Shown here: piece after piece, positions 47,385 through 64,000 of the stretch | Layout of the letters: each line of letters begins with the position of its first letter | How positions within the stretch are numbered: the stretch's first letter is position 1 | IMG/VR virus record: IMGVR_UViG_3300047444_000299 | Location: 1-64,000 of that record | DNA: 64,000 bases | Direction: 5' to 3' (one strand) | Origin: a virus | Taxonomy: Duplodnaviria > Heunggongvirae > Uroviricota > Caudoviricetes | Notes under the pieces: generated by a model | The model's database searches: none | What the model was told of the DNA's origin: nothing | What the model saw: only the letters and a program-made list of their open reading frames with translations | Made by a program: the position numbers and the translations under genes

Positions 47385-47472
47385 TGATTGCATCAAATGC
47401 TTGACACACTCACTGTATGGTATAGAATGAGCATACACCAACCGAAACCCTGAACCATATAGGAGTTACACA
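47385..47472 (+). promoter_or_regulatory. promoter TTGACA-N16-TAGAAT + conserved leader (CACCAACCGAAAC..AGGAG)
   Basis: near-consensus hexamers, leader shared with downstream cassettes. Confidence 0.6.
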
Positions 47473-47778
47473 ATGTCTAAACGTACTGAATTCGAACTAC
47501 TCGAAGCGCATCTAACCCTACAACTGAAAAAGCATGTCGAAGCCAAGACTACCGGGAAACCATCAAAGAAAGGTTCTAAGGTAGCTCGGGACTTTATCCA
47601 AGTGTCTATGTTGTGTGGTAAGTGGTCATTAGATGGGATGCATTACATTCCGCTTGTGGTTGATGTTGAGGCGATTGATAACGCTATAGCCGAAATGGAA
47701 GCAAAGAAAGCTGCTAGGGCATTGGGTTATCAGGACCGAGATATCAAGGTCGAAGGGTTTGTAAAGGTTAGTAAGTAA
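47473..47778 (+). CDS. Lys-rich small basic protein (possible DNA/RNA-binding)
   Basis: 101 aa, strong promoter + SD. Confidence 0.5.
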   Translation: MSKRTEFELLEAHLTLQLKKHVEAKTTGKPSKKGSKVARDFIQVSMLCGKWSLDGMHYIPLVVDVEAIDNAIAEMEAKKAARALGYQDRDIKVEGFVKVSK

Positions 47779-47793
47779 CCTAAACCATTGATA

Positions 47794-47818
47794 AGCCTCG
47801 GGAAACCGGGGCTTTTTG
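47794..47818 (+). terminator. rho-independent terminator (family A)
   Basis: AGCCTCGGGAAACCGGGGCT + TTTTT. Confidence 0.8.
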
Positions 47819-47869
47819 TTATGTGATCCAATCCCTATAATAGAATCAAAAATAATTTGTTTTGGGGGG

Positions 47870-47897
47870 TTGACACCATAAAAACCCATGCCATACT
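47870..47897 (+). promoter_or_regulatory. sigma70-like promoter TTGACA-N16-CATACT
   Basis: lies about 130 nt upstream of ATG 48031. Confidence 0.45.
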
Positions 47898-48030
47898 GAC
47901 ATCACGCAAAAGGAATACAGATTTTAAAGATTTAAGGAACTTGTTAGCAGATGCACGCACTAAACGACTCAATTGCCTAGGTTCGCATTATCAACCGACC
48001 AAACCAATTTGATGTTTAGGAGATTCAAAA

Positions 48031-48507
48031 ATGCGCCAAGTATCTAAAGCTGCTCAGGAACAAACTGTTACCACAAACGTTCTGGAAACCGCTACTACCG
48101 CGTTGTCACTCGCGGAGGATGCATTGATCAAGGCTAAAGAAGCTTTGGCCGCTGCTGGGGGTTCCAAGGGCTCTAAAGGTGGTTCCAAGGGTAAGGCTGT
48201 GACCATTCAACCCCAAACCCCTGTAAACGGTTCTGATGCGTCCAAGGGATCGGCTGGACGTAACCCAAGCCCGGAACAACTCGAAATTCGATCTGCGATT
48301 ATCGAGGCTTTGCAGTCCGGGGAAATCCGATTCTTTACCATTGCCGAAGTTACCGACGCAATGAAAGCCGATAGAATCCAAACCCGAAACGCGGTTAACT
48401 ATCTGGAAGCCCAAGGGGTAGTAACCCGATACGGTGAAAAACTCCCAGAAGGTCGCGGCCAGCGGGAACTGATCTACAAGGCCGGGACCATTCCACCGGT
48501 TGCCTAA
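48031..48507 (+). CDS. putative winged-helix DNA-binding protein with Gly/Ser/Lys-rich linker
   Basis: disordered GGSKGSKGGSKGK segment; C-terminal wHTH-like region. Confidence 0.45.
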   Translation: MRQVSKAAQEQTVTTNVLETATTALSLAEDALIKAKEALAAAGGSKGSKGGSKGKAVTIQPQTPVNGSDASKGSAGRNPSPEQLEIRSAIIEALQSGEIRFFTIAEVTDAMKADRIQTRNAVNYLEAQGVVTRYGEKLPEGRGQRELIYKAGTIPPVA

Positions 48508-48527
48508 AAGATCCTGATAAGCTCTAA

Positions 48528-48551
48528 AGCCCCTTAACCGGGGCTTTTTTG
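48528..48551 (+). terminator. rho-independent terminator
   Basis: AGCCCC-TTAACC-GGGGCT + TTTTTT. Confidence 0.75.
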
Positions 48552-48562
48552 TTTTCAATAGC

Positions 48563-48590
48563 TTGACAATCTGTTTCAATGGGTTACATT
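48563..48590 (+). promoter_or_regulatory. sigma70-like promoter TTGACA-N16-TACATT
   Basis: upstream of the 48640 ORF. Confidence 0.45.
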
Positions 48591-48639
48591 ACCATATAGG
48601 AACATTCTTACATTCTCATACCTTAATCAATGGTGACTT

Positions 48640-48870
48640 ATGAAACTGTTTTATGTAGCAATCTATATGGTTGTGTGTAGTCTCCCTGTAGCGTTCCTGT
48701 CAATCTATATGGCATGGGATAGGACTCCCCCAAACCTGCGCCTAGTACAGTTGGATCAAATCCTTAGAACCGGTTCCCTGACCTATATCGGGTTGATTGT
48801 CGGTAGTCTGTTGGTGTTTCTGGTTTGGCTGATGCTTCCGGGTGACCGGGTTCGCAATGTGTATCAGTGA
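48640..48870 (+). CDS. small membrane protein (2 TM)
   Basis: 76 aa. Confidence 0.45.
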   Translation: MKLFYVAIYMVVCSLPVAFLSIYMAWDRTPPNLRLVQLDQILRTGSLTYIGLIVGSLLVFLVWLMLPGDRVRNVYQ

Positions 48871-49439
48871 ATAATTGCTGAATTTGATGGAATTCTAGTG
48901 AATTATTCTGAATGGTTCCGGGGCTGATTAGTGAATTCTGCTGTAATTTGATGCTATTGCGGGATTTGATGCATTTATTATTGCATCAAAATATTGAACA
49001 CTCACTAGGCAGCCCGAACGAATTCCCCATTTTTCTGTAACGTTTTCGATACACCGTAACGTTTTCAATACACCACATAAATTTTCGATCAATTCAATTC
49101 CCCAACCATTTCCGAACCATTCCTAAGCTGATTCTATTACCTTCCAACCATTCCAAATCTATATCTATTTTCCTGATATTCTCCCCTAAAAATATGCATA
49201 ATACCAATATACATTATGGATTTAATCAATCCCAATATATGGGATGATTTTGATTGATTTAGGCTTGCATTCTGTTCTGAATCTGCTAGGCTATTGTCTA
49301 TTCACTAATGCTTTTCTAACCTTCTAATGGTTATATGACTACTCACTTGATGGCTGGATTGATTGTTATCGGGTTGTTGCTATCCCTAACCGGATCAATG
49401 GTTTGTGGTTATGGTGATATGCCTAGGCATTCCCTTTGC

Positions 49440-50030
49440 TGGATTATTTGGTTTGATATCTCTATAGGTATGTTGGGGGTATCCCTGCTATTGCTTATTG
49501 GTTTGATGATGTTCTAGGGGTTTGATGATGTTCTATATGGTTTGGATGATATCATTGGTTTGTGATGGTTTGATGATCTATGCGGTTCAATGCATGGTTA
49601 AACATTCGTTTTGGCAGGTGGTGGTTTTTGATTCATCCTTATTGATTAGTGGTATTGCAATGTTTGTGGTATTGTGCTATGGGTTTAAATCTCTGCGGCT
49701 TGTTCGGTTGAATAGGGGTTGATATTATGTTTCGGTTGATTAATGCTTTAGAGGTTTGCGGCTGGTTTGGATTGATTTGTGTTTCTGGTTTGATTTTGGA
49801 ATCATTCCGGGTTATCATTTGATTCTACTGATTGAGGGGATTTGATCATGGTTACTATGATTCTAGGCTTCGCGGTATTGCTGGGGTTTTTGTTTCACTA
49901 TTGCCCGGTTGATACTGCTAAGGGTTGATATTCTGCTAGGTTTGGGGCGATTCTGGTGGAATATTAGCATTTAGGGTTTGCATTTAATTTTGAATTGGTT
50001 TATTGTTTGATTTTGATTTAATCACTTGAC
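49440..50030. repeat. iteron-like degenerate GGTTTGAT / GGTTGAT repeat array
   Basis: more than 20 occurrences of GGTTTGAT-like words, including tandem GGTTTGATGATGTTCTA x2. Confidence 0.6.
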
Positions 50031-50042
50031 TTGGCGAATTAC

Positions 50043-50396
50043 ATGACTCTGTATAACTCTATCAAATTGTTGGAAGCGTTCCGGGACTTTTGTTTGTCTA
50101 AGGGCAAATCGGTTATTGTTCACATTGAACCGGGTAAGGGTGCAAACTGGAATGTTTGCGCGGTTGGTCAATTCGGGGAATTCAAAAAGGTAAAGGTCGG
50201 GAATTGGGGCCGGGGCCATACAATGGCCGAAAAGCTGTCTGATGCGTTTGATTGTTTCAATAACCGTCAAACCTATCAGGATTTGTGTAAAGCTGATCGA
50301 GCCGAGGAATTGTTCCCGACATTCGATAAGCTGGCGGTTCGATTGACTGCTGATATCGAAGCATTCCAAGCCCAATGGATGAAAGCTAAAAAGTAA
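50043..50396 (+). CDS. hypothetical protein
   Basis: 117 aa. Confidence 0.45.
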   Translation: MTLYNSIKLLEAFRDFCLSKGKSVIVHIEPGKGANWNVCAVGQFGEFKKVKVGNWGRGHTMAEKLSDAFDCFNNRQTYQDLCKADRAEELFPTFDKLAVRLTADIEAFQAQWMKAKK

Positions 50397-50399
50397 TTT

Positions 50400-50457
50400 G
50401 CATTTGATGCAATCCCCTGTATACTGCTGATACCAACCAAATACAGGGGATTTGAAA
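50400..50457 (+). promoter_or_regulatory. PeSL-like cassette (stem-loop + TTGCAT-N16-TATACT + conserved leader)
   Basis: TTGCATTTGATGCAA palindrome, TATACT, CCAACCAAATACAGGGGA leader. Confidence 0.55.
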
Positions 50458-50841
50458 ATGGCTTTAGAAATATCGGCGGTATCTGATCTGTTTAACTACG
50501 GTATGACTGAAGACGGAACCCCTTTTATAGCTGAACGTTATTTCATAGAAGCCGAAGCGACTAACGGCCAGCGTTGGATTCATACCGCACGGTTTGATTC
50601 TGTTGTCAAGGTTGACGGCGGCGAAGAATGCGACGGAATGGTATTTTTTGAAGACCATCGCCAAGAAGCAAGCGATAAATGCGAAGCATTGGCCGAACGT
50701 ATCCGGTTATTCATGAATGCCGGTGGTAAGCTTGATCCTGTACACTGGATTGAATCTGATCCTAGATATGGTTCGAATGCCTATCAAACCCTAGATTCAC
50801 AAGGATATTTCCGGGATCTGGAAAGAAAAGAAGAATATTAA
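50458..50841 (+). CDS. hypothetical protein
   Basis: 128 aa after cassette. Confidence 0.5.
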   Translation: MALEISAVSDLFNYGMTEDGTPFIAERYFIEAEATNGQRWIHTARFDSVVKVDGGEECDGMVFFEDHRQEASDKCEALAERIRLFMNAGGKLDPVHWIESDPRYGSNAYQTLDSQGYFRDLERKEEY

Positions 50842-50845
50842 GCAT

Positions 50846-50870
50846 AAGCCCCTGATTCTAGGGGCTTTTT
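50846..50870 (+). terminator. rho-independent terminator (family C: AGCCCCTGATTCTAGGGGCTTTTT)
   Basis: identical at 58604, 60314 (1 mismatch) and 61886. Confidence 0.8.
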
Positions 50871-50880
50871 ATTTCTTCAA

Positions 50881-50955
50881 AATAATTGCATCAAATTGCT
50901 TGCATTGGTCTGGGGTTGGGTTATACTGACCATACACCAACCGGAGACATCAACC
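50881..50955 (+). promoter_or_regulatory. PeSL-like cassette (type a: TTGCATCAAATTGCTTGCATT-N15-TATACT + leader)
   Basis: conserved with about 30 other copies. Confidence 0.55.
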
Positions 50956-51189
50956 ATGAAATCCAAAATCAAAGTTACCGTACAAGTTGAAGACTACAAA
51001 GGCAATATGGTTGATGTTGTTGGATGCAAAAGCCTGAAACAAAATATCCACGGTAACTGGGTTGGTTATGTTGGCCGGGAACGTATCGAAAACTTTAGCT
51101 GCGCATTTGATGCCGCCCAATGGTTCCTAGGCGCTGATATGGCTGGCGACGAAATCACCGCTTTCATGACCAAACATATCATGCATTAA
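50956..51189 (+). CDS. hypothetical protein
   Basis: 77 aa. Confidence 0.5.
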   Translation: MKSKIKVTVQVEDYKGNMVDVVGCKSLKQNIHGNWVGYVGRERIENFSCAFDAAQWFLGADMAGDEITAFMTKHIMH

Positions 51190-51267
51190 TTGATGCAAAG
51201 GGGCTTGCATTTGATGTAAACCCCTGCTAGAATGATCTTACACCAACCAAATACAGGATTCGCCAAC
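51190..51267 (+). promoter_or_regulatory. PeSL-like cassette
   Basis: GGGGCTTGCATTTGATGTAAACCCC hairpin, TAGAAT, leader. Confidence 0.55.
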
Positions 51268-51579
51268 ATGAAATTTTACAGCCTCCCAGTGAACGTACAA
51301 GCTCAAGTCAAAGCCGAATGGATGGCAGGTAAGATCATGTCGGCTAATGATCGTATGCGGTACTTTGCCCAAAATGGCTACAAAACAGCGGCGGAATATC
51401 ATCAAGCTGTACTAGCCGAAGCCCCAACCGTTGAAGAACTGAAAATAATCATTATCGAATTGATGAAATCCCGGTTTATCCAACATGGTTTTGAGGACTG
51501 GATGAATCAAATCCCTAACGCGGCCATGATCTGCCGTAACTATAACGAACTGGTCATGATGACTAAGGCCGGGAAATAA
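51268..51579 (+). CDS. hypothetical protein
   Basis: 103 aa. Confidence 0.5.
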   Translation: MKFYSLPVNVQAQVKAEWMAGKIMSANDRMRYFAQNGYKTAAEYHQAVLAEAPTVEELKIIIIELMKSRFIQHGFEDWMNQIPNAAMICRNYNELVMMTKAGK

Positions 51580-51648
51580 TTTCATCAAAGGGGTTGCATC
51601 AAATGCAGCCCCTGCTATACTGATGACACACAAACAGGAGTTACCAAC
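51580..51648 (+). promoter_or_regulatory. PeSL-like cassette
   Basis: hairpin + TATACT + leader with AGGAG. Confidence 0.55.
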
Positions 51649-51861
51649 ATGCAATTGATCAAAGCGGTTGACGCGAAGCTGGGCAACATTATAGCCATGC
51701 CGGTGACTGTCCATACTGGGGTTGTCCAAATGGTTATGGGCAAACTGGTATCCCGGACGTTTGAAGACGTTGACGGCTGGATTACCTTGACCATTGAAAC
51801 CAAGGCCGGTAAGGTCGCGCATGATTATCCCTTTGATGATTTGATTGTAAAGGAGGTTTGA
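51649..51861 (+). CDS. hypothetical protein
   Basis: 70 aa. Confidence 0.5.
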   Translation: MQLIKAVDAKLGNIIAMPVTVHTGVVQMVMGKLVSRTFEDVDGWITLTIETKAGKVAHDYPFDDLIVKEV

Positions 51862-51863
51862 AC

Positions 51864-51980
51864 ATGATCGGCCAAACCCGGATAACAAAGAAAGAGTTTT
51901 ATAAACTCGGTGGTTTGTCAAATCCTAAGTTGTTTCGCAAATCCGCTAATGGTGTTTGGTCCTATTGGAAAGGGGAATAA
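51864..51980 (+). CDS. mini-protein (38 aa)
   Basis: AAGGAGG SD 7 nt upstream. Confidence 0.4.
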   Translation: MIGQTRITKKEFYKLGGLSNPKLFRKSANGVWSYWKGE

Positions 51981-51983
51981 ACC

Positions 51984-52187
51984 ATGTATAACCATAAGGC
52001 TTTGATGGGGTTGGAAGCGCGTATAAACGATGATCTAGAGGTCATTGGGATTATCACCGATTCCTATCATGAGGGGCAAACCCACTGGCTGCAAATCGAT
52101 GGCAGCTATGAACTCGCTGTGCAAGCGGTGGCGGTTGTTCTGGATCTGGGCAAGGGTACAAGCTTTGCACGTCCTAAAGCGTTCTAG
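51984..52187 (+). CDS. hypothetical protein
   Basis: 67 aa. Confidence 0.45.
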   Translation: MYNHKALMGLEARINDDLEVIGIITDSYHEGQTHWLQIDGSYELAVQAVAVVLDLGKGTSFARPKAF

Positions 52188-52199
52188 GGGCGGTTTAAA

Positions 52200-52320
52200 C
52201 GATATTCTAAACCCGGCATTGTCCGGGTTTTATTTTGTCTATTGGTATTGACAAGCTGTCGGAGAATATGAGAAAATGAATTGACGACCTATATTTGTGG
52301 TTGGCATGAAAATTTCCTCA
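52200..52320 (+). repeat. conserved intergenic element (TTGACA...AATATGAGARAATGAATTGACGACC...TTGGCAYGAAAATTTCC), copy 1
   Basis: three near-identical copies (52200, 53571, 53953). Confidence 0.6.
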
Positions 52321-52400
52321 ATTATTTGCATCAAATTGCTTGCATTCTGTTTTGATTCAATTATACTGACCACACACCAAACGAAATCGGGGGCTACAAC
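52321..52400 (+). promoter_or_regulatory. PeSL-like cassette (type a)
   Basis: as above. Confidence 0.55.
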
Positions 52401-52610
52401 ATGAACCGTAAAGAAGTTTTCCTAAAGATCAAAGCTGTCGCGGCGGTTGATGGTTTTACTAAACTTGACGTGCTGCCGATGTTCAAAGGCGTAGCACCCT
52501 CGGTTGTTGATTCGTACCTGAAAAAAGCGTATGAACTCGGGTTTATTACCCTGAATGCAGGCAACCCGCTTTGCATGTACCCGACTATCAATCTGATCAA
52601 TCTCAAATAA
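52401..52610 (+). CDS. hypothetical protein
   Basis: 69 aa. Confidence 0.5.
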   Translation: MNRKEVFLKIKAVAAVDGFTKLDVLPMFKGVAPSVVDSYLKKAYELGFITLNAGNPLCMYPTINLINLK

Positions 52611-52685
52611 TTTGATGGAAAGGGGTTGTATTTGATGCAACCCCTGTTATACTAACCACACCAAACGAAATCAGGAGTTACCAAA
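52611..52685 (+). promoter_or_regulatory. PeSL-like cassette
   Basis: GGGGTTGTATTTGATGCAACCCC + TATACT + leader. Confidence 0.55.
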
Positions 52686-53015
52686 ATGATCGTTGACCAA
52701 ACCCCAGTAATGAAAACAATCGAAATCAAGATCATAAACCAGTCCGGCGAAGTGGTGTATCATCAATCCGAAATAACTTTCGGCTTCCCGCCAGCCTTTG
52801 TCGGTGCTGTTATCGAAAAGGTTTGCGTCTGCGAATTAGACGATGATGATCATGGTGATTTGAACAACTTGCATGTAATGGGCAATATGTCAAGCCGTCG
52901 ATTCGGTAAGGATTGGGAATTTACAGTTTCGGCGGTTGTTGTTTACCCTAAATCGGTGGGGGTGGCTGATGGCGACATGCACGCCATGTCACTGGCCTAT
53001 AAAAACACCCTGTAA
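52686..53015 (+). CDS. hypothetical protein
   Basis: 109 aa. Confidence 0.5.
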   Translation: MIVDQTPVMKTIEIKIINQSGEVVYHQSEITFGFPPAFVGAVIEKVCVCELDDDDHGDLNNLHVMGNMSSRRFGKDWEFTVSAVVVYPKSVGVADGDMHAMSLAYKNTL

Positions 53016-53092
53016 TTAATTGATGTAAAGGGTTTGACATTTGATGCAAACCCTTTATACTGATCATACACCAACCGAAACAGGATTTGATC
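53016..53092 (+). promoter_or_regulatory. PeSL-like cassette
   Basis: as above. Confidence 0.55.
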
Positions 53093-53320
53093 ATGGCCGC
53101 CACTGAACTGCAAAAATGGCAAGCAATGCAAACTAAAGCACATGCCCAAGCAAATGCGGGGTTTGCATTGTCGGTTAATGTTGAAATGTTGTTGAACCAC
53201 GAACTGCCAGCCGAAAAGATGCGCGAAGAATTGGCAAAGTTTTTGGAAGACTGGAAACAGGGTTGGGATAAAGCAATTGACGATTATGTTCAAACCGGTA
53301 TTAAATTAGGGGAAATTTAA
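53093..53320 (+). CDS. hypothetical protein
   Basis: 75 aa. Confidence 0.5.
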   Translation: MAATELQKWQAMQTKAHAQANAGFALSVNVEMLLNHELPAEKMREELAKFLEDWKQGWDKAIDDYVQTGIKLGEI

Positions 53321-53321
53321 A

Positions 53322-53525
53322 ATGAAAGCAGTTTCATTCTTTACTGATGACATCAAGATCATAGCCCACACCGCAACCCATGCCGATGATATTGGCAAAC
53401 CGATATCAGTCCGGGAGTTTGCGCAAGGCCAGCCGGTAAGCCTGTACACCATGCACAATGGTGACCTGATGCTGATTCGCAATGATGCACACCGGACGTT
53501 TATCGAAGGCCCGGAAATGGTTTAA
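53322..53525 (+). CDS. hypothetical protein
   Basis: GGGGAA SD; 67 aa. Confidence 0.45.
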   Translation: MKAVSFFTDDIKIIAHTATHADDIGKPISVREFAQGQPVSLYTMHNGDLMLIRNDAHRTFIEGPEMV

Positions 53526-53549
53526 ATCAAATCCTAATGAACCCGGCGA

Positions 53550-53577
53550 AAGTCGGGTTTATTTTTGTCTGTACTAG
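53550..53577 (+). terminator. rho-independent terminator (family B)
   Basis: ACCCGGCGAAAGTCGGGT + T-tract. Confidence 0.75.
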
Positions 53578-53640
53578 TTGACACACCCCAGAAAAATATG
53601 AGAGAATGAATTGACGACCCTAAAAACATATTGGCACGAA
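53571..53640 (+). repeat. conserved intergenic element, copy 2
   Basis: as 52200. Confidence 0.6.
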
Positions 53641-53728
53641 AATTTCCCGAATTATTTGCATCAAATTGGTTGTATTGCATCAAATACCCTGTATACTGAC
53701 CATACACCAACCGAAAGAGGCTGCAAAA
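53641..53728 (+). promoter_or_regulatory. PeSL-like cassette (type a)
   Basis: as above. Confidence 0.55.
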
Positions 53729-53920
53729 ATGAAACAGCAAATCATAAAATCCGCTGATGAATCGAAAATCGCTAAAATCAAGTTTGATTCTGAATATCAA
53801 GAATGGCAAGTCCGGTTGTATCATGTTGTAGGCGGTAAAGAAGTGTTTCAAAAGGATGCAACCTATTTCACCACTGATAAAGAAGACGCAACCGGCACCG
53901 CCCAAGCAATGATCAAGTAA
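53729..53920 (+). CDS. hypothetical protein
   Basis: 63 aa. Confidence 0.5.
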   Translation: MKQQIIKSADESKIAKIKFDSEYQEWQVRLYHVVGGKEVFQKDATYFTTDKEDATGTAQAMIK

Positions 53921-53926
53921 GAAAAG

Positions 53927-53951
53927 AGCCTCGGGAAACCGGGGCTTTTTA
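53927..53951 (+). terminator. rho-independent terminator (family A)
   Basis: AGCCTCGGGAAACCGGGGCT + TTTTT. Confidence 0.8.
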
Positions 53952-53952
53952 T

Positions 53953-55560: not shown

Positions 55561-55563
55561 TCC

Positions 55564-55878: not shown

Positions 55879-55891
55879 CACCAACCCAATA

Positions 55892-56964: not shown

Positions 56965-56965
56965 A

Positions 56966-57028: not shown

Positions 57029-57475
57029 ATGAACTATGCAGACAACGGCGAAAACATCAGTAACAAACTGTTTAAATATCTGCCATTGGGCGACATAATG
57101 CGCGTTCGGGCTGGGCATGATCTGGGGCTTTGCCGAATCGTCATGATTCAAGACGATGATTATAACTTTGAGGATCTTTGCGGTGACTGCTACAAGCCGG
57201 AAGCTTGCCCGGATATCGAAGTAACTACATTAGCACGCCAGAAACGAGCATTCCGCGCCCGTGTGAACCGTGAAGGCGTATGGGGCGTGATTTTGCAATG
57301 CCGACCTGATCCAACGTGCGAATGGGTTGACGTGGAATCGGTGTGGGGGTTGGTTGGCAAGGATTTTTTCGAATCAGGCTATGATTCTGAATTTGTCAAG
57401 CTCGCGGATCAATGGTTGATGGAAAAAGTCGATTTTGATTATATGATTGGGTTGATTCGTACCTTTTCAAAATAA
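57029..57475 (+). CDS. hypothetical protein
   Basis: 148 aa. Confidence 0.5.
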   Translation: MNYADNGENISNKLFKYLPLGDIMRVRAGHDLGLCRIVMIQDDDYNFEDLCGDCYKPEACPDIEVTTLARQKRAFRARVNREGVWGVILQCRPDPTCEWVDVESVWGLVGKDFFESGYDSEFVKLADQWLMEKVDFDYMIGLIRTFSK

Positions 57476-57549
57476 AATCAAAATAGGGGGTTGTATTTGA
57501 TGCAACCCCTTGCCATAATAACCACACCAACCGAACCGGAGTTAACAAA
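57476..57549 (+). promoter_or_regulatory. PeSL-like cassette
   Basis: as above. Confidence 0.55.
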
Positions 57550-57840
57550 ATGTCTTTTCGCCTCCCAGCTAAAACCAACCCATTGCGCGCACTGTTTGAC
57601 CTAGAACTGTTGGTCAAGATCGAAAGCCGGGAATTGGTTGTTACCCTGTTCGAAGCTCGCGGTTCGGCTCGCCGGTTGTTTGAATCTGATATCCGCGTGC
57701 AATCGGTTGCCTTTGTCATTGTCGAGGCTAATGGAATGGTTAGCCTTATCGCGTTTGAACGGAACCGCGAACATGGTGGAACCCCAGTTCATAAAATTTT
57801 GTGGAATTTCGGCAAGGCATGGGAAACCATCAAAATTTAA
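57550..57840 (+). CDS. hypothetical protein
   Basis: 96 aa. Confidence 0.5.
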   Translation: MSFRLPAKTNPLRALFDLELLVKIESRELVVTLFEARGSARRLFESDIRVQSVAFVIVEANGMVSLIAFERNREHGGTPVHKILWNFGKAWETIKI

Positions 57841-57914
57841 TTGCATCAAAGGGGTTGTATTTGATGCAACCCCTGCTATACTAACCCCATACCAACCAAC
57901 AAAGGGGTTTGATC
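57841..57914 (+). promoter_or_regulatory. PeSL-like cassette
   Basis: as above. Confidence 0.55.
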
Positions 57915-58004
57915 ATGGGCCAGCCACACACAAACGTCGATACACTGGGACTCTGGTTAGTAACCATTCTGGCGGTATTGTCCGTGGTCTGGACGTTTAG
58001 TTAA
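57915..58004 (+). CDS. membrane mini-peptide (29 aa)
   Basis: cassette-driven; hydrophobic LGLWLVTILAVLSVVW. Confidence 0.3.
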   Translation: MGQPHTNVDTLGLWLVTILAVLSVVWTFS

Positions 58005-58041
58005 TTTCTTGTTAGCCTGACCTTTTCCCGGAGTCTATCCC

Positions 58042-58239
58042 ATGCTCAATGTCATAACCCCAGCTACAAGCTCGCCTAAGCCCCTACAAGGCGTTTTCGG
58101 TCAATACGTGGCATATCGGGCCGAACATAACCCGCTTTCGGGCCGCTGGATGGTTCTGAGCGAGTTTGACCAATGTATTCAGGCAGGTCTAAGCAAGGCT
58201 GCCGCCGAATCGCTGGCGGATACCCTTAATCAAATTTAA
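58042..58239 (+). CDS. hypothetical protein
   Basis: 65 aa. Confidence 0.4.
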   Translation: MLNVITPATSSPKPLQGVFGQYVAYRAEHNPLSGRWMVLSEFDQCIQAGLSKAAAESLADTLNQI

Positions 58240-58315
58240 ATTTGATCCAAACCCTTGACCGGTGGATTTTGTTCTGTAATAATCCACCTATACCAATCGA
58301 AACGGAATTAACACC
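58240..58315 (+). promoter_or_regulatory. PeSL-like cassette variant (TTGACC-N17-TAATAA)
   Basis: leader CCAATCGAAACGGAA. Confidence 0.45.
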
Positions 58316-58588
58316 ATGTTGACCCAAACCAGCCTAAAACATCCGGTTATGCAGGAACGAATTCTCGCCGGGTTGATCGAAGCCCAAGAAAAGGCCGAAA
58401 AGACCGGGCATGGTCGGGCGTATGTCGCGAACTCGAAAAGCAATAACATCATGCGAATCGATGTTTTCAAGCCTGACCAATTGGCATGGCTGCCTAAAGG
58501 CGGCGTCATTGTGTACGGTGCCGAGTCCCGGACCATTACCCCTATGGTCGAGGCGGCATTAGGCTCGAAGCTGTCCGACCTGATCTAA
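58316..58588 (+). CDS. hypothetical protein
   Basis: 90 aa. Confidence 0.5.
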   Translation: MLTQTSLKHPVMQERILAGLIEAQEKAEKTGHGRAYVANSKSNNIMRIDVFKPDQLAWLPKGGVIVYGAESRTITPMVEAALGSKLSDLI

Positions 58589-58603
58589 CCCGGATTCAAT
58601 CAA

Positions 58604-58630
58604 AGCCCCTGATTCTAGGGGCTTTTTTAT
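58604..58630 (+). terminator. rho-independent terminator (family C)
   Basis: AGCCCCTGATTCTAGGGGCT + TTTTTT. Confidence 0.8.
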
Positions 58631-58632
58631 TT

Positions 58633-58718
58633 CTTAAAATAATTTGATGCAACCCCTTGCAATGGTCTGAATTAGGTGTAAACTTACCCCATACCAAACG
58701 AAATCAGGAGTTAAGAAC
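58633..58718 (+). promoter_or_regulatory. PeSL-like cassette variant
   Basis: leader CCAAACGAAATCAGGAG. Confidence 0.45.
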
Positions 58719-59141
58719 ATGAAATTCGAAGCCGGTCAAACCTACGCAACCCGCTCAATTTGTGATGCTGATATGGTCATATCGATTAAGGTTGTATCGC
58801 GTACCGCCAAACGTCTCAAAACAGAAGACGGCAAAACCCTCGGGATCTATGAATATGAGGGGATCGAACAGGTTCGCCCGTGGGGCCGTTATAGCATGTG
58901 CCCAATTATCGGCGCTGATGATCTGGTAAAGGCCAAACAACCAACCCAAGCCCCGGCGGTTAAAGCCCCGGTAACCCTTAACAGCCTGATGGCCGAAGGC
59001 GAGAAACTGTTTACCCCGGATCAATTCAGCGACCTTAAAAACATGTTGGGCGGTCTGCTAGGGGTAGCGATTCAAACCAAACCAGAACCGAAACCAACCG
59101 CGCAAATTATCAACTTTGCCGACTACAAGAAAAGGGGTTGA
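58719..59141 (+). CDS. hypothetical protein
   Basis: 140 aa. Confidence 0.5.
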   Translation: MKFEAGQTYATRSICDADMVISIKVVSRTAKRLKTEDGKTLGIYEYEGIEQVRPWGRYSMCPIIGADDLVKAKQPTQAPAVKAPVTLNSLMAEGEKLFTPDQFSDLKNMLGGLLGVAIQTKPEPKPTAQIINFADYKKRG

Positions 59142-59143
59142 TC

Positions 59144-59494
59144 ATGCTGTATACATTGATGGGTTTGGTTCTGATGAATGGGGCAACAGGCCCAATGGAT
59201 ACCGTCGATACAATCGAGGGGATGCATTTGGAACAATCGGTTTGTGTGGCTCGGGCAAAGGTTCTGGCGGAGGAACTCGGGGGCGCAAAATGCCGACCTG
59301 AAAAGGAATTAGATCCTGATTCGCCATATGAAAACTCAAATACAAAAATTCAATTGCCCTCGGGCCGGGTGATTGACTTGTTCTATACTCGGGGATATTG
59401 GTTCTATCCAATGGATTTAACCGACCCTGACCGGGAGCTAGTCGAGCAATGGACCGGGTTTGTGTATAGCCGCGACGATGGCAAACGATATTGA
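59144..59494 (+). CDS. hypothetical protein (hydrophobic N-terminus)
   Basis: 116 aa. Confidence 0.45.
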   Translation: MLYTLMGLVLMNGATGPMDTVDTIEGMHLEQSVCVARAKVLAEELGGAKCRPEKELDPDSPYENSNTKIQLPSGRVIDLFYTRGYWFYPMDLTDPDRELVEQWTGFVYSRDDGKRY

Positions 59495-59564
59495 TTAAAA
59501 AGTTTGCATTGCATCAAATAGCTGTTATACTGCTAACACACCAACCGAAACAGGGAATTGAAAC
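59495..59564 (+). promoter_or_regulatory. PeSL-like cassette
   Basis: as above. Confidence 0.55.
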
Positions 59565-59816
59565 ATGAAAACCACTCGCCAAACCTTCGACCTAGTAGAC
59601 GTTAAGAAATTCGAATTTTCGCACGTTACTGGTAATGGGAATTCGGTTTATAGTTTTATCATTCAAACCCCAGCCGGTGACCTGATCGAAGGCAAGACCC
59701 AACCGGGGCTAAAACAGCACCTGTCGAGCAACCCTGAAAAGCTGGCAAACGTGGCAATTGATACAACCCCAGCCGGTCGGGTTATCATGAAAGATGCCAG
59801 CCGGGTACAAAAATAA
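59565..59816 (+). CDS. hypothetical protein
   Basis: 83 aa. Confidence 0.5.
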   Translation: MKTTRQTFDLVDVKKFEFSHVTGNGNSVYSFIIQTPAGDLIEGKTQPGLKQHLSSNPEKLANVAIDTTPAGRVIMKDASRVQK

Positions 59817-59890
59817 TTTGATTCAAGGGGTTGTATTTGATGCAACCCCTGCTATACTAACCACACCAACCGAAACCGGGAGTTTACAAA
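59817..59890 (+). promoter_or_regulatory. PeSL-like cassette
   Basis: as above. Confidence 0.55.
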
Positions 59891-60121
59891 ATGGCTAAAG
59901 TTATACGATGCAAGAAATCGACCAACCCAAATCCGCCAGCCTTTACTGTTACGTTTGCGGGCCGTCCGTTGAATGCCCCGGTTGGTGCGAATTTGAATGT
60001 TTCTTGCACGGTGTACGCGGATGATCTGGAATCGGCAAGAATCGCGATATATCAGGAATACGAACATTTGGTTCGGGTTGATATCAAACCCCGCGTTTTC
60101 ATTCCCGGCGATATATTGTAG
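59891..60121 (+). CDS. hypothetical protein
   Basis: 76 aa. Confidence 0.5.
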   Translation: MAKVIRCKKSTNPNPPAFTVTFAGRPLNAPVGANLNVSCTVYADDLESARIAIYQEYEHLVRVDIKPRVFIPGDIL

Positions 60122-60147
60122 GACTCAAACCAAAACCCCGCGAACAA

Positions 60148-60309
60148 ATGCGCGGCGTGTGTCCTGAGAATGGCCGGGATGATAATAACACCGCGCAGGT
60201 TCGGGCCTGTTACGGTGACCACGGGGAATGCTGGTTAGATCAAGATTTGCATGGCGTCAAGTATTGGAATCAAGAAGACTTGATTTTGATTAAAGCGGCG
60301 GACGAATAA
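60148..60309 (+). CDS. hypothetical small protein (53 aa)
   Basis: no SD and no cassette; weak. Confidence 0.25.
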   Translation: MRGVCPENGRDDNNTAQVRACYGDHGECWLDQDLHGVKYWNQEDLILIKAADE

Positions 60310-60313
60310 GCTA

Positions 60314-60339
60314 AGCCCCTGATCCTAGGGGCTTTTTAT
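60314..60339 (+). terminator. rho-independent terminator (family C variant)
   Basis: AGCCCCTGATCCTAGGGGCT + TTTTT. Confidence 0.8.
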
Positions 60340-60340
60340 T

Positions 60341-60424
60341 TTCAATTATTTGCATCAAATCGCTTGACCATGATTCAAAACACTGTAAACTGACCATATC
60401 GAAACCAAAAACAGGAATTCAAAC
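60341..60424 (+). promoter_or_regulatory. PeSL-like cassette variant (TTGACC-N18-TAAACT)
   Basis: as above. Confidence 0.45.
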
Positions 60425-60838
60425 ATGACTACCCAAATCGAATTGATAGCCGAAGCTGTAGCCAATGCCGCCGAAGGTTGCGAAGCGTTCAATGTCAAGA
60501 TCAAAGAACTGTTTCCGACCTTTCTAGCTAAAGCTCGCCCATACAAATGTTTGGGTGATAATGTGACGGTTGATTTTTACAACGTCGCGGATAAATCGGA
60601 ATGCGCAAGCGGTATCCTGTTAAATGCAACCGGCCAAATGCGTTTTATGATGCATCTAAACGGCAACTCGGCGCATAATGTAGCTGCATCTTTTGATGTT
60701 GAATTGCTTAGTTGGTCGCACCACTTGCGAAATGCTGGCGTGAAATTCCGCAAGATCAAAGGCAAAACCCCAGCCGAAGCCCTGCAAAAGTTGGTGGTAT
60801 GGTTCGAAAAGAACGCGGATCTAATCAAATCGGTCTAA
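60425..60838 (+). CDS. hypothetical protein
   Basis: 137 aa. Confidence 0.5.
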   Translation: MTTQIELIAEAVANAAEGCEAFNVKIKELFPTFLAKARPYKCLGDNVTVDFYNVADKSECASGILLNATGQMRFMMHLNGNSAHNVAASFDVELLSWSHHLRNAGVKFRKIKGKTPAEALQKLVVWFEKNADLIKSV

Positions 60839-60840
60839 TT

Positions 60841-61188
60841 ATGGACAACGAACTGTTAGCCCCGTGTGGCAAATGCCCACGGGTTACCGATAAAGAATCG
60901 GGCTATATCGCTGGGGCGTCTGTAATGCTGTTTAAGACGTTCAACGGTTCAAGCCGATACGTTTATCAGGTTCAAGGCCGAAACGTCGCTGTGATGCTTA
61001 TAGCGAGCCATAGCAGCCAATTAGGCCGGGTTGTATCGGTGTTTTGCATGGGGGATTATGCGAACGCTGGATTGTTCCGAAAGTTGTGGTATGTTGCGGC
61101 AAAAGACTTTAAACATTTGCGGTTAGGGGATGAACTTTCAACCTGTCCGCAACTAGCCGAATTAATTCATGAAATCAAGGGGATTTAA
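60841..61188 (+). CDS. hypothetical protein
   Basis: 115 aa. Confidence 0.45.
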   Translation: MDNELLAPCGKCPRVTDKESGYIAGASVMLFKTFNGSSRYVYQVQGRNVAVMLIASHSSQLGRVVSVFCMGDYANAGLFRKLWYVAAKDFKHLRLGDELSTCPQLAELIHEIKGI

Positions 61189-61190
61189 CC

Positions 61191-61412
61191 ATGTGCAAAC
61201 AATTTATTAAAAATTCAGATATGCGCGAACTAGTCAAGTTTGCCGAAGGGATCGGCTATACTGTTGAACTAACCAAAAACAAACATTTAAAGTTTTTGCT
61301 ACCGGGTAACTCCCCAATTTTTACCAGTTCCACCCCTTCGGATTATCGAAGCTGGACCAATTGCAAAGCTCGACTAAAACGCCTTGTGTCCGGCTCGGGG
61401 GTTGCGGCATGA
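61191..61412 (+). CDS. hypothetical protein
   Basis: 73 aa. Confidence 0.45.
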   Translation: MCKQFIKNSDMRELVKFAEGIGYTVELTKNKHLKFLLPGNSPIFTSSTPSDYRSWTNCKARLKRLVSGSGVAA

Positions 61413-61591
61413 TCGAACGCAATAGGGCCGCATCCGGGCGCGTAGGGAACGTGGTTTTTGGTCTGGCTTGTGTAGGTGATGGGTTGGTACGGGTTTTGTC
61501 GCTGGGGTTCCTACACACCCGACTAACCCTGACCGTTTCCAAATACCAGACAAAACGCCATATTATGCGGCTCAAATCCAGCCGAAAATAA
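61409..61591 (+). CDS. hypothetical protein
   Basis: ATGA overlap; 60 aa. Confidence 0.35.
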   Translation: MIERNRAASGRVGNVVFGLACVGDGLVRVLSLGFLHTRLTLTVSKYQTKRHIMRLKSSRK

Positions 61592-61667
61592 TTTGATGCA
61601 ACCCCTTGACGTGGCTTGTGTGGCCTGTATACTGACCACACACCAACCAAAAACAAGGAATTCAAAA
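61592..61667 (+). promoter_or_regulatory. PeSL-like cassette variant (TTGACG-N17-TATACT)
   Basis: as above. Confidence 0.5.
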
Positions 61668-61880
61668 ATGGCAAACCATATCCAGAACCTGCAAACACAA
61701 GTTGACCAACTAACCACACAAGTTAACTTGGCGGATGATAGCCTGCAAGCGTTTCGCGCATATCTGGCGTCACCTAAGTTTACAGGCGACGGGGCTGGCG
61801 AGCTACAAGGTTACATATCGATTCAAGACGTTGAACACCGTCTAAGCGAAATTTGGCGGGAGTTGCACGGCCTGAATTGA
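61668..61880 (+). CDS. hypothetical coiled-coil protein
   Basis: 70 aa. Confidence 0.5.
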   Translation: MANHIQNLQTQVDQLTTQVNLADDSLQAFRAYLASPKFTGDGAGELQGYISIQDVEHRLSEIWRELHGLN

Positions 61881-61885
61881 ACGAA

Positions 61886-61911
61886 AGCCCCTGATTCTAG
61901 GGGCTTTTTCT
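61886..61911 (+). terminator. rho-independent terminator (family C)
   Basis: AGCCCCTGATTCTAGGGGCT + TTTTT. Confidence 0.8.
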
Positions 61912-61920
61912 TTTCTTTAA

Positions 61921-62001
61921 AATAATTGCATCAAATGCTTGCATTGCATCAAAACCCCTGCAATAATACAGGCACACCAACCAACAACGGGGAACACCAA
62001 C
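61921..62001 (+). promoter_or_regulatory. PeSL-like cassette (type a)
   Basis: as above. Confidence 0.5.
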
Positions 62002-62334
62002 ATGAATCAGCACCCAATGGCAAAAGCATACGTTTCGGCCTTTGTCAAGAATGGCGGCAAGAAATTTAAACACAAATTCAATCTGTACGGGTTGGATCAA
62101 ATCATAACCTTCGGATATCGTCGGTTTGCTTTTAACCTGAAAACAGTGTACGGCACTGCCAGCTATGAACTGGAATTCATTCCCCAGTGCGCAACCCGTC
62201 CGGGCGACTGTGATGAAATTTATCTAAGCCCATACCCGAATTTTGGGGATTGGTTAGAATGCGATTCAGTTGCAAAGGCTGAATATGAGGAATTTATGGG
62301 GATTGTATCCAAGACAATTGGAATCCGAAAATAA
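62002..62334 (+). CDS. hypothetical protein
   Basis: 110 aa. Confidence 0.5.
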   Translation: MNQHPMAKAYVSAFVKNGGKKFKHKFNLYGLDQIITFGYRRFAFNLKTVYGTASYELEFIPQCATRPGDCDEIYLSPYPNFGDWLECDSVAKAEYEEFMGIVSKTIGIRK

Positions 62335-62410
62335 TTTGATAGAAAGGGGTTGCATTTGATGCAATCCCTGTTATACTGCTAACACACCAACCGAAACAGG
62401 GGATTCACAA
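62335..62410 (+). promoter_or_regulatory. PeSL-like cassette
   Basis: as above. Confidence 0.55.
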
Positions 62411-62611
62411 ATGGCTTTCAAACTCACTAAAACCCGGTTCACTGGCCTAGCGTATTATCAGCAACAGCCGGGCTTGTGGCGGATTGCGGACATACATGAT
62501 TCACCGTTAAACGCGCAGGGGTTGCCGCGTGCGGTTGGTCCCCAGTACCAGACCAAATCGGAATTACTGGCGGATCTGGAAAGATACGCAAAAGAAAGCT
62601 GGGGCTATTGA
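62411..62611 (+). CDS. hypothetical protein
   Basis: 66 aa. Confidence 0.5.
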   Translation: MAFKLTKTRFTGLAYYQQQPGLWRIADIHDSPLNAQGLPRAVGPQYQTKSELLADLERYAKESWGY

Positions 62612-62790
62612 GAATGATTTTTAAAGATACTTTTATCGACAAAAAGACCGGCAAACAATTTACCGTCGAAATTCAATTAGACCAGATTGAAATTGCCAAA
62701 ATTATGGCACAACGGGCGATTGATTCACAAGCTGGCCTGTCGGTATCGCTAAACGGTAATATCAGGTGCCGGGTTATTAAAAAGCTCTAA
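62608..62790 (+). CDS. hypothetical protein
   Basis: ATGA overlap; 60 aa. Confidence 0.4.
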   Translation: MRMIFKDTFIDKKTGKQFTVEIQLDQIEIAKIMAQRAIDSQAGLSVSLNGNIRCRVIKKL

Positions 62791-62866
62791 AATCAAAAAT
62801 AGGGGTTGTATTTGATGCAACCCCTGCTATACTACTGGAAAGCCAACCAAAACAGGGAATCGAAAA
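62791..62866 (+). promoter_or_regulatory. PeSL-like cassette
   Basis: as above. Confidence 0.55.
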
Positions 62867-63082
62867 ATGGTCATGAAATTAGCCCAAATCATAGAAGCAA
62901 TCAAAAACAACCATCTGGAAACAGTTAAAAAGGAATTGGTCCGGTATGGGGATATTTTGGAATCGAACGATTGGGAAAGCGAGAAAGGTTGTCACCGCCG
63001 CTATATCATCAAACGGCTGGATTCGGTTTTTGTGGTGGCAATGTTGAACGGTGATACCCTCACAATTAAACAACAAAACTAA
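62867..63082 (+). CDS. hypothetical protein
   Basis: 71 aa. Confidence 0.5.
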   Translation: MVMKLAQIIEAIKNNHLETVKKELVRYGDILESNDWESEKGCHRRYIIKRLDSVFVVAMLNGDTLTIKQQN

Positions 63083-63091
63083 TTGACAACC

Positions 63092-63134
63092 AACCCGGCC
63101 TAGACTATGATTGGTTCTAGGCCGGGTTGTTTTA
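63092..63134 (+). terminator. rho-independent terminator (13-bp stem AACCCGGCCTAGA/TCTAGGCCGGGTT)
   Basis: long perfect hairpin followed by GTTTTA. Confidence 0.65.
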
Positions 63135-63180
63135 CCGGGAGACAAACACCCCGGCTGCCTGTTAGAATTTTTCCAAAAAT

Positions 63181-63263
63181 TTTAAAATAATTGCATCAAA
63201 TGCTTGCATTGCATCAAATACATGTCATAATGTCCCTACACCAACCGAAAAGAGGGTTACAAA
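63181..63263 (+). promoter_or_regulatory. PeSL-like cassette (type a, -10 CATAAT)
   Basis: as above. Confidence 0.5.
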
Positions 63264-63599
63264 ATGGAACTGCAAAACATAGCTAAGCTGGCGTTTGATG
63301 CAATGGGGCCAGCCGGTCACCATGCAAGGGTTGGGCGCGGTTGTGGTCGGGTTTACGTTGAACTGTTTACAGACCAATATAAAAGCATTCGCAAGGGTTC
63401 GGTGGTTGCCAAGGCTTTCGAGAAAGCCGGGTTTAAAATGTTCCCACGTCCAAACCATACCGGCGTGCAAATTTATATCGGTTACGACAATTCGACCGGG
63501 ATCGAATGGAATAAGGCCGAAGCTGTAGCCGCTTCCCTCAAGGCTAACGGGTTGGGCGAACATGGTTTAAAATGCACCGTTAGCGGTGACGGTGATTAA
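63264..63599 (+). CDS. hypothetical protein
   Basis: 111 aa. Confidence 0.5.
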   Translation: MELQNIAKLAFDAMGPAGHHARVGRGCGRVYVELFTDQYKSIRKGSVVAKAFEKAGFKMFPRPNHTGVQIYIGYDNSTGIEWNKAEAVAASLKANGLGEHGLKCTVSGDGD

Positions 63600-63678
63600 A
63601 ATTTGATACAAAGGGGTTGTATTTGATGCAACCCCTGTTATACTGACCCTACCAAATACGAATTTAGGAGTTTCAAAA
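63600..63678 (+). promoter_or_regulatory. PeSL-like cassette
   Basis: leader CTACCAAATACGAATTTAGGAG. Confidence 0.55.
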
Positions 63679-63921
63679 ATGGCACGTCAATCCCGTTACA
63701 CCGTTAAAGACCTACGCGCAGATATCGCGGAAATGAATAAAACCCTGATGCCGTCCGGTTACTATCTGGGGGTTGAATGTCGCAACGGCTATACCGGTCT
63801 GGATGAATACCGGGTAAGTACAGACCCGGCAAAGCGCGACACTTGTGTACGAAATATCGAATGCGGTTCGCCTCGGGATTGTTGGGACGCGGCTCGCATG
63901 TATTCACCCCGCGAAGCCTAA
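63679..63921 (+). CDS. hypothetical protein
   Basis: 80 aa. Confidence 0.5.
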   Translation: MARQSRYTVKDLRADIAEMNKTLMPSGYYLGVECRNGYTGLDEYRVSTDPAKRDTCVRNIECGSPRDCWDAARMYSPREA

Positions 63922-64000
63922 AAATTTCATCAAATAGGGGTTGCATCAAACTGTAATCCCTATATACTGACCCTACCAAATACGAATTTAGGAGTTTCAA
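63922..64000 (+). promoter_or_regulatory. PeSL-like cassette (runs off window end)
   Basis: same hairpin/TATACT/leader as 63600. Confidence 0.5.

Follow-up and report, generated by a model that had tools for sequence, protein, structure and literature searches.

A dense array of PeSL-like promoter/hairpin/leader cassettes in the small-gene region of a T4-type phage

The 64,000-nt stretch analyzed here, positions 1-64,000 of the IMG/VR virus record IMGVR_UViG_3300047444_000299 (Caudoviricetes; this whole stretch is called the window), contains 31 promoter/leader units, all on the + strand, from position 47,376 to the window end at 64,000. The set was defined by a composite search and hand curation. 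Judged from their sequence, the units are probably composite early promoter/attenuator cassettes of the promoter-early stem-loop (PeSL) type, belonging to a T4-type phage and serving also in module exchange. PeSLs were described in the coliphages RB49 and phi1, where promoter, terminator and mini-circle activities were demonstrated (Arbiol et al. 2010, PMC2839356), and PeSL/PmSL elements are known from T4/PST and KVP40/nt-1 (Comeau et al. 2014, PMC4122927). The architecture is already known and occurs here in a lineage in which it had not previously been described. A sequence-only reading of this DNA had proposed about 31 repeated PeSL-like units; the units proved real, with motif counts far above chance, and every sequence-level feature of the published PeSLs (PMC2839356, PMC4122927) was found in this genome.

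Each unit of approximately 85 bases comprises, in order, a -35 hexamer (TTGYAT), a spacer of 16-17 nt, a -10 hexamer, an A/C-rich leader (ACACCAACCGAAAC), a Shine-Dalgarno (SD) sequence and an ATG. The -35 hexamer was TTGCAT in 13 units, TTGTAT in 10, TTGCAA in 3 and TTGAC(A/C/G) in 5. The spacer measured 16 nt in 24 units and 17 nt in 7, and the -10 hexamer was TATACT (20 units), CATAAT (4), TAGAAT (3), AATAAT (2) or TAAACT (2), with a TGn extension in 17 of the 31. At the sequence level, all 31 units fit a sigma70-like pattern (TTGNNN, 16-17 nt and a TAnAnT-type hexamer). ATG was the start codon after every unit and lay 27-34 nt from the end of the -10 hexamer in 29 of 30 units. In the alignment, all units showed the A/T-rich upstream part and, at the 3' end, the SD sequence and start codon of a small open reading frame (ORF), as in PeSLs.

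Within three mismatches, the hairpin 23-mer GGGGTTGYATTTGATGCAACCCC was matched 12 times against 0 expected; within two mismatches, the leader core ACACCAACCGAAAC was matched 19 times against 0.67 expected, and 18 of these matches lie in the array. On the + strand of the window, TATACT was counted 23 times, with 22 copies lying beyond 48 kb; the - strand has two. No unit was found in the 1-47.3 kb part, compared with 31 in 47.4-64 kb; like PeSLs, the cassettes are confined to the hyperplastic region and absent from the core. Where TTGCATCAAA is found outside the array, it falls within coding sequence, apparently by chance. The description of the units as near-identical holds for these core motifs and fails for the whole 82-nt units, whose pairwise identity averages 68% and reaches 88% at most. 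The array had been placed from 47.4 kb onward; a unit does lie there, but it is isolated, and the dense array starts at 50.4 kb. Thirty of the 31 units fall within 50.4-64.0 kb, with a mean spacing of 467 nt and irregular distances of 224-1242 nt, and the 47.8-50.4 kb interval holds other promoters or non-coding sequence. Likewise, almost every small ORF had been described as preceded by a unit; the 31 units do serve 46 ORFs, but approximately one-third of these ORFs lie inside operons of two to four genes and lack their own unit.

A sigma70 scan with the E. coli consensus returned 39 sites against 35 expected and was uninformative here, because TTGYAT and TATACT score low against that consensus. 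The T4 late-promoter motif TATAAATA was absent from the window, and no Rfam family reached the gathering score anywhere in it. T4 middle promoters carry a Mot box (TGCTTtA) centred at -30 in place of the -35 element and use the phage-encoded activator MotA. A Mot-box middle promoter (PmSL) assignment was rejected for the units, whose -35 TTGYAT stands 16-17 nt from the -10; TGCTT is limited to some hairpin-less units, at approximately -38, and Mot-box-like TGCTTNA was not enriched in the window. The idea of an antisense RNA, in which a + strand copy of the leader complement would pair with all leaders, was dropped, since ACACCAACCGAAAC had no - strand match at up to two mismatches.

A stem-loop or a direct-repeat variant had been attributed to the units; a strong hairpin (GGGGTTGYA-loop-TGCAACCCC and variants) is present in 16 of the 31, and the other 15 are hairpin-less, many of them carrying TTGCATCAAATGCTTGCATTGCATCAAA. 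In the 16 units, the 5' arm contains the -35 hexamer and the 3' arm lies in the spacer, giving a G-run/C-run stem-loop that overlaps the promoter, as in PeSLs. The stems are 9-13 bp long and GC-clamped, and their mean RNA folding energy (-16.2 kcal/mol) is the same as that of the 11 canonical terminators of the region. None of the 16 hairpin units has a canonical terminator upstream, whereas such a terminator precedes 9 of the 15 hairpin-less units (Fisher p = 2.5e-4). Within this genome, the complementary distribution of hairpins and terminators is the chief reason to assign the hairpin a terminator-like function.

Stem pairing was followed in an alignment of 40 hairpin copies from four genomes over 10 pair positions. 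Paired cells accounted for 97%, compared with 44-58% when the partner was slid, and both sides had changed at three of the 10 pairs (G-C to U-A; C-G to U-A via U.G; and the closing A-U to G-C). Within the stems, G.T outnumbered A.C by 32 to 4, with the G.T cases spread over seven of the 10 pairs, a bias compatible with an RNA-like hairpin on the + strand but not with a symmetric duplex operator or a cruciform. The wobble confined to the + strand and the replacement of canonical terminators point to a putative insulating role of the stem at the RNA level.

Gene turnover was assessed by comparing the window with UViG 3300046810_000101, a metagenomic relative with 98% identity in the topoisomerase medium subunit. 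The core (1-21 kb) shares 92% of its ORFs and is approximately 93% alignable in three collinear blocks, with a median amino acid identity of 84%. The middle region (26.5-36.9 kb) shares 90% and is approximately 94% alignable (median 77%). The cassette-free small genes (36.9-46.9 kb) share 70% and are approximately 52% alignable (median 65%). The cassette array (51.6-63.1 kb) shares 60% of its ORFs (21 of 35, relative locus L003) and is 61% alignable in 14 blocks (median 76%), which makes it the most variable block in gene content. The array is therefore not collinear or invariant among relatives, as 14 of its 35 ORFs are absent from the relative, and the gene-by-gene presence or absence flanked by cassettes that had been anticipated is seen as unit-bounded insertions/deletions (indels), again as in PeSLs. 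Fifteen of the 26 alignment-block ends fall inside units, which make up 21% of the sequence (binomial p = 4e-5).

Two of these indels have junctions inside homologous units, with overlaps of 43 nt and 145 nt. In the one-module indel, the relative has a single unit in place of unit 16 (56744), gene 56803-56964 and unit 17 (56968) of the window, and this single unit is chimeric: the hairpin of 56744 is joined, within the shared TATACTGAYCATACACCAACC leader, to gene 57029. In the five-gene indel, the relative lacks a 1.58-kb segment (52406-53990) with four units and five genes, and its terminator/TTGACA-element/unit stretch of approximately 190 nt is a chimera of the two window copies that flank this segment. 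Further events are replacements with the start codon at one border and the next hairpin at the other. Between the phages Milchi and Astolliot, 10 gaps occur in 19.6 kb of the array and none in the next 4.6 kb. The retained array genes are better conserved than those of the cassette-free block (median 76% versus 65%), yet more array genes are missing, which fits module-wise gain and loss. In the core, a homing-endonuclease gene (13,496-14,197), located between the polynucleotide kinase (PNK) and RNA ligase 2 genes, is one of two indels; apart from it, a 210-amino-acid ORF (11,918-12,550) is the sole core ORF absent from the relative.

The window encodes the UvsX C-terminal domain, a DnaB/gp41-like helicase, primase, the large and medium subunits of topoisomerase II, AsiA, Rnl1, PNK, Rnl2 and NAD-salvage enzymes. 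The homologue of the anti-sigma70 protein AsiA (approximately 9,077-9,364; PF09010, E 4.5e-12) directly follows the topoisomerase II genes; an annotated anti-sigma factor occupies the matching position in Milchi. No MotA domain was found by Pfam among the 145 ORFs of this window. The gene order of Milchi, a 175-kb myovirus (PMC11780129), is T4-like (gp43-RegA-gp62/44 clamp loader-gp45 clamp-gp46/47-gp55), with T4 baseplate genes in addition. On this gene set and gene order, the phage is classed as T4-type, the genome context in which PeSLs occur.

The only cultured relatives are the Pseudomonas phages Milchi and Astolliot, whose conserved genes are approximately 75% identical in nucleotide sequence. 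Among 50,697 phage records searched by megablast with the array and the core, only these two gave matches, both distant; a megablast-type search with a single unit gave Milchi only. In the small-gene array of Milchi, GGGGTTGTA-loop-TACAACCCC-TG-TATACT is repeated at least 17 times ahead of an A/C-rich leader, and UViG 3300046810_000101 contains 25 units in 13.5 kb. The Milchi paper makes no mention of cassette units (PMC11780129). An exact-pattern scan of metagenome contigs returned one contig of 75,886 bp, which is locus L006 of the viral collection. At the head of the Milchi array (locus L001, 1,150-2,260), four tandem paralogous small genes with a repeat spacing of approximately 314-341 nt indicate local gene duplication in this region.

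The units resemble the RB49/phi1 PeSLs in their T4-type genome, their clustering in hyperplastic regions, the A/T-rich region after the upstream stop, the sigma70-like -35/-10, the SD and ATG of a small ORFan, the GGGG...CCCC stem-loop that may overlap the -35, and the element-bounded indels and replacements between relatives with crossovers between the -10 and the ATG (PMC2839356). They differ in their hexamers (TTGYAT/TATACT here, near-perfect TTGACA/TATAAT there), in having one fixed stem-loop position (5' arm = -35) instead of five subclasses, in the conserved A/C-rich leader with its fixed distance from -10 to ATG, and in the exclusion of hairpin units from positions after canonical terminators. 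Their density (one unit per approximately 467 bp) is also very high, and they are known here from sequence alone. As in the elements of T4/PST and KVP40/nt-1, stem and hexamer consensus are lineage-specific, consecutive small ORFs are each preceded by an element, and such runs contain many indels (PMC4122927). The nt-1 hexamers TTGYVH...TAWWAT are close to TTGYAT here, whereas the nt-1 stem (A3-4G3...C3T3-4) is unlike the present one; a Mot-box (PmSL) class is not evident here, where AsiA is present and no MotA domain was found in the window. Lambdoid-phage morons (promoter-gene-terminator) are likewise autonomously expressed single-gene modules that vary among relatives (PMC2839356), but they lack shared flanks and are often antisense to their neighbours, whereas the present units all point the same way and have 60-190 nt of homology in common. 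Like canonical Rho-independent terminators, the unit hairpins are GC-rich, reach approximately -16 kcal/mol and directly follow a stop codon; unlike them, they lack a U-tract.

On this reading, each unit would be a fixed-geometry expression cassette for an early gene. Host sigma70 RNA polymerase would start approximately 7 nt after the -10, and the resulting leader of approximately 25 nt, which is G-poor, predicted to be unstructured, A/C-rich and ends in SD and ATG, would favour efficient translation. The hairpin would fold in read-through RNA from the upstream gene, where it may attenuate read-through just ahead of the next promoter, perhaps protect the 3' end of the upstream mRNA, and insulate neighbouring mini-operons within 65-85 bp of intergenic space; where a canonical terminator already insulates, the unit would come without a hairpin. 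AsiA blocks -35 recognition in T4. The AsiA of this phage could provide a shut-off route for -35-dependent promoters, consistent with an early class. T4-type recombination (UvsX is encoded in the window) could use the 60-190 bp that the units have in common as a substrate, and unequal or inter-genome crossovers would delete, insert or swap whole promoter-plus-ORF modules. Promoter activity, its early timing, termination and the attribution of turnover to recombination are inferences from the sequence.

Several points weigh against this reading. The hairpin tails hold 2-5 T in the 9 nt past the stem, compared with 4-7 for the 11 canonical terminators; lacking a U-tract, the unit hairpins are therefore not canonical intrinsic terminators and are at best attenuators, or require a factor. 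The wobble asymmetry is partly confounded, because the 5' arm doubles as the -35 and is constrained for this second reason, and the 40 hairpin copies share common descent, which makes their counts non-independent. The enrichment of block ends in units is partly expected, because units are alike everywhere and selection removes gene-disrupting events. A three-ORF insertion of 965 nt (54663/54668) has only its left end in a unit, its right end lying at an SD site. Units are as similar to one another within the genome (identity 0.68) as between window and relative (0.68), giving no sign of concerted evolution. Finally, the cassette-free block at 36,900-46,900, in which approximately 30 small ORFs lie tightly packed, comes close to the array in its mosaicism, and no repeated intergenic motif was found in it; the cassettes are therefore not required for turnover. 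The proposal that the cassettes are an exchange substrate accordingly stands as far as the unit-bounded indels and the two chimeric junctions go, but a causal role is weakened by this mosaic neighbour.

The last three of these points also suit the best-placed alternative, in which the cassettes are passive, that is, vertically inherited strong early promoters that mark gene borders and neither drive nor target exchange, while turnover would come from relaxed selection on dispensable small early genes together with short-homology or illegitimate recombination. We regard this as a real but lesser possibility. It accounts poorly for the two indels with chimeric sequence and overlapping junctions inside homologous units, for the share of block ends in units and for the combination of better-conserved retained genes with more missing genes, and in RB49/phi1 mini-circles between PeSLs have been demonstrated by experiment (PMC2839356).

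The PeSL-type reading was also weighed against a regulatory one, in which the palindrome and a recurrent 11-mer, TTGCATCAAAT, would be duplex-DNA sites of a regulator that switches approximately 30 promoters, the regulator being either a winged-helix protein encoded at 48031-48507 or a host factor. The 11-mer occurs in two copies per unit, approximately two helical turns apart and in either orientation; it is also present in hairpin-less units (at approximately -57 and -33) and is reversed in hairpin units. The C-terminal winged helix of the protein was modelled with pLDDT >90 and matched MarR/ArsR/ROK domains (Foldseek probability ~1.0, E ~2e-3), and its recognition helix is invariant in 26 homologues. 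However, the stem changes are compensatory or wobble-preserving instead of sequence-conserved, and most Milchi hairpins have other loops or arms (TTACGG, TACAA) without the 11-mer. An UP element would account equally well for the A/T-rich sequence at -40 to -60, nothing connects the winged-helix protein with the TTGCATCAAAT sites, and the 24-kb Milchi array locus yielded no homologue of the protein. An operator function is therefore considered unlikely. Slightly less likely still is the specific version in which the 48031-48507 protein reads a regulon of approximately 30 operators, switching the early mini-gene set on and off and keeping the modules exchangeable; if true, one phage protein would control the whole early mini-gene set, and modules would be exchangeable among phages that share the regulator.

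A third alternative, in which cruciforms or single-stranded DNA hairpins cut or bound by gp46/47- or endonuclease VII-like enzymes would act as recombination hot spots, is improbable. It recalls the speculation of the PeSL authors that GGGG...CCCC is the target of a DNA-binding protein (PMC2839356), the relatives encode SbcCD-like gp46/47, and several block ends coincide with the start of a hairpin. The excess of G.T over A.C, however, means that only the + strand arms pair well, whereas a cruciform needs both strands; moreover, the documented crossovers lie in the leader or the upstream TTGACA element instead of the hairpin, and hairpin-less units participate equally. Integron attC arrays consist of a tyrosine-recombinase integrase beside promoterless ORFs separated by attC sites. 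An array of this kind, miniature inverted-repeat transposable elements (MITEs), CRISPR-like repeats or N4-type hairpin promoters for a phage RNA polymerase share with the units only small ORFs between short imperfect palindromes and were rejected on anatomy: no integrase, transposase or Cas domain was found among the 145 window ORFs (Pfam-A), the spacing is irregular, every unit has its own promoter with correctly spaced sigma70 hexamers and a fixed ATG distance, terminal inverted repeats and target duplications are absent, and the 23-nt stems lack the attC layout.

The favoured PeSL-type reading extends such cassettes from T4-like phages of coliphage, Yersinia and Vibrio groups to a separate T4-like lineage whose cultured relatives infect Pseudomonas. 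The example is unusually dense and regular, and its fixed geometry would ease experiments on transcription start sites, termination and recombination. The cassette-free neighbour that turns over almost as fast argues against the cassettes being necessary for hyperplasticity; this control and the putative RNA-level insulating role bear on the open question of PeSL function.

In total, 46 + strand ORFs of 29-158 amino acids were curated, 40 of which (29-157 amino acids, none with a Pfam domain) belong to the small-gene array proper at 50458-63921. The claim that these small ORFs lack a recognizable domain was borne out, as none of the 46 had a Pfam match at E<=0.001 and two matches were marginal (E 0.002-0.004), while 11 of the 46 matched PHROGs families of unknown function. 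A related-locus search with the 70-amino-acid protein of 51649-51861 gave no match, and an exact-protein look-up for 54129-54602 gave a sole match, on a 1.3-kb contig. The 46 orphan, putatively early proteins are candidates for host-takeover or anti-defence screens.

The array is described below from left to right. Unit 1 (47376-47472, ATG 47473) is isolated and hairpin-less, with TTGCATCAAATGC, TTGACA, 16 nt, TAGAAT and the leader ACACCAACCGAAAC. Unit 2 (50373-50457, ATG 50458) has only a weak hairpin (-4 kcal/mol), with TTGCAT, 16 nt and TATACT. A canonical intrinsic terminator (GC hairpin and T-run) at 50846-50875 (+) precedes the hairpin-less unit 3 (50875-50955, ATG 50956); the further canonical terminators, all on the + strand, start at 47793, 48526, 52209, 53536, 53925, 55888, 58602, 60313, 61883 and ~63091. 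Unit 4 (51180-51267, ATG 51268) belongs to the hairpin class (GGGGCTTGCA..TGTAAACCCC), as does unit 5 (51569-51648), which has a flipped loop (TCAAA) and heads a three-gene operon (51649-52187). The hairpin-less unit 6 (52315-52400) follows terminator 52209 and a tandem TTGACA element and forms the left edge of the five-gene indel. Unit 7 (52601-52685) is of the hairpin class, and so is unit 8 (53009-53092), a GGGTTTG..CAAACCC variant with a compensatory change from G-C to T-A. The hairpin-less units 9 (53645-53728) and 10 (54043-54128) follow terminators 53536 and 53925, respectively, and the latter is the right edge of the five-gene indel.

The next three units are of the hairpin class: unit 11 (54592-54677) has a 10-bp stem with an inserted T-A pair, and its leader holds the 965-nt insertion in the relative; unit 12 (54995-55080) precedes gene 55081-55320, which is replaced in the relative; and unit 13 (55310-55389) heads a two-gene operon. 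Unit 14 (56049-56133), hairpin-less with TTGCATCAAATGCTTGCATTGCATCAAA, follows terminator 55888, and its downstream gene is replaced in the relative. Unit 15 (56334-56419; hairpin class) has the -10 CATAAT. The one-module indel has as its left partner unit 16 (56719-56802; hairpin class) and as its right partner unit 17 (56943-57028), which is hairpin-less with no terminator upstream. Units 18 (57466-57549) and 19 (57830-57914) belong to the hairpin class. Unit 20 (58230-58315) is hairpin-less with TTGACC, 17 nt and AATAAT, and two further hairpin-less units follow, unit 21 (58632-58718; after terminator 58602) and unit 22 (59479-59564). After unit 23 (59806-59890; hairpin class), the hairpin-less unit 24 (60339-60424) follows terminator 60313 and heads a four-gene operon (60425-61591). 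Units 25 (61581-61667) and 26 (61914-62001; after terminator 61883) are hairpin-less, units 27 (62325-62410) and 28 (62781-62866) are of the hairpin class, and unit 29 (63179-63263) is hairpin-less after terminator ~63091. Units 30 (63592-63678) and 31 (63916-64000), the latter cut by the window end, belong to the hairpin class.

An extra promoter-like element (TTGACA-N18-GAGAAAAT..GAATTGACGACC..TTGGCAYGA..ATTTCC) occupies the gap between terminator and hairpin-less unit at 52248-52330 (+); it recurs at 53578-53660 and 53965-54050, and 55925-56050 holds a variant. The element and the unit that follows it make up the repeat of approximately 190 nt that bounds the five-gene indel. The element is found in the relative too. 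Possible identities are a tandem promoter, a small RNA and a sigma54-like site (TGGCAC-N5-TTTCC); the -12 GC of the sigma54-like TTGGCAYGAAAATTTCC is not conserved.

Several contigs end within the array. A 130,361-bp Logan contig that is 100% identical to window positions 38,031-52,648 ends inside unit 7, at 52648, and for two relatives the large contigs likewise stop 2.3-3.5 kb inside the array (loci L017, L019 and L020, including the Logan contig). The repeated units evidently break short-read assemblies, and array-type regions are therefore probably under-represented in metagenomic phage genomes.

The regions flanking the array have features of their own. Just upstream of unit 1, a non-coding stretch of approximately 520 bp (46,870-47,390) contains two 50-nt tandem repeats (46883-46932 and 46938-46987), followed by a nearly invariant near-palindromic block (…CCACTAAACTGCCAAGGAATCCATAGGTATGGAACCTTAA) and a G-free C-rich tract, and its GC skew flips from +0.45 to -0.62. 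In three relatives, the stretch is better conserved than the flanking genes; candidate explanations are an origin, a packaging site and a non-coding RNA. At the head of the array, the 48,031-48,507 gene, with its own predicted TTGACA promoter at 47870 and a leader of approximately 130 nt, encodes a 158-amino-acid protein with a long N-terminal helix, a K/G/S-rich linker and an almost invariant C-terminal winged helix, which is confidently modelled and resembles MarR/ArsR/ROK DNA-binding domains; its 26 homologues were found in metagenomes. The adjoining 48,870-50,040 region is T/G-rich on the + strand, with an AT skew down to -0.48 and no cassette units; short direct repeats (GTAACGTTTTCGATACACC and GGTTTGATGATGTTCTA, two copies each) are present in it, as are several very small hydrophobic ORFs, among them 49335-49517 and 49525-49722.

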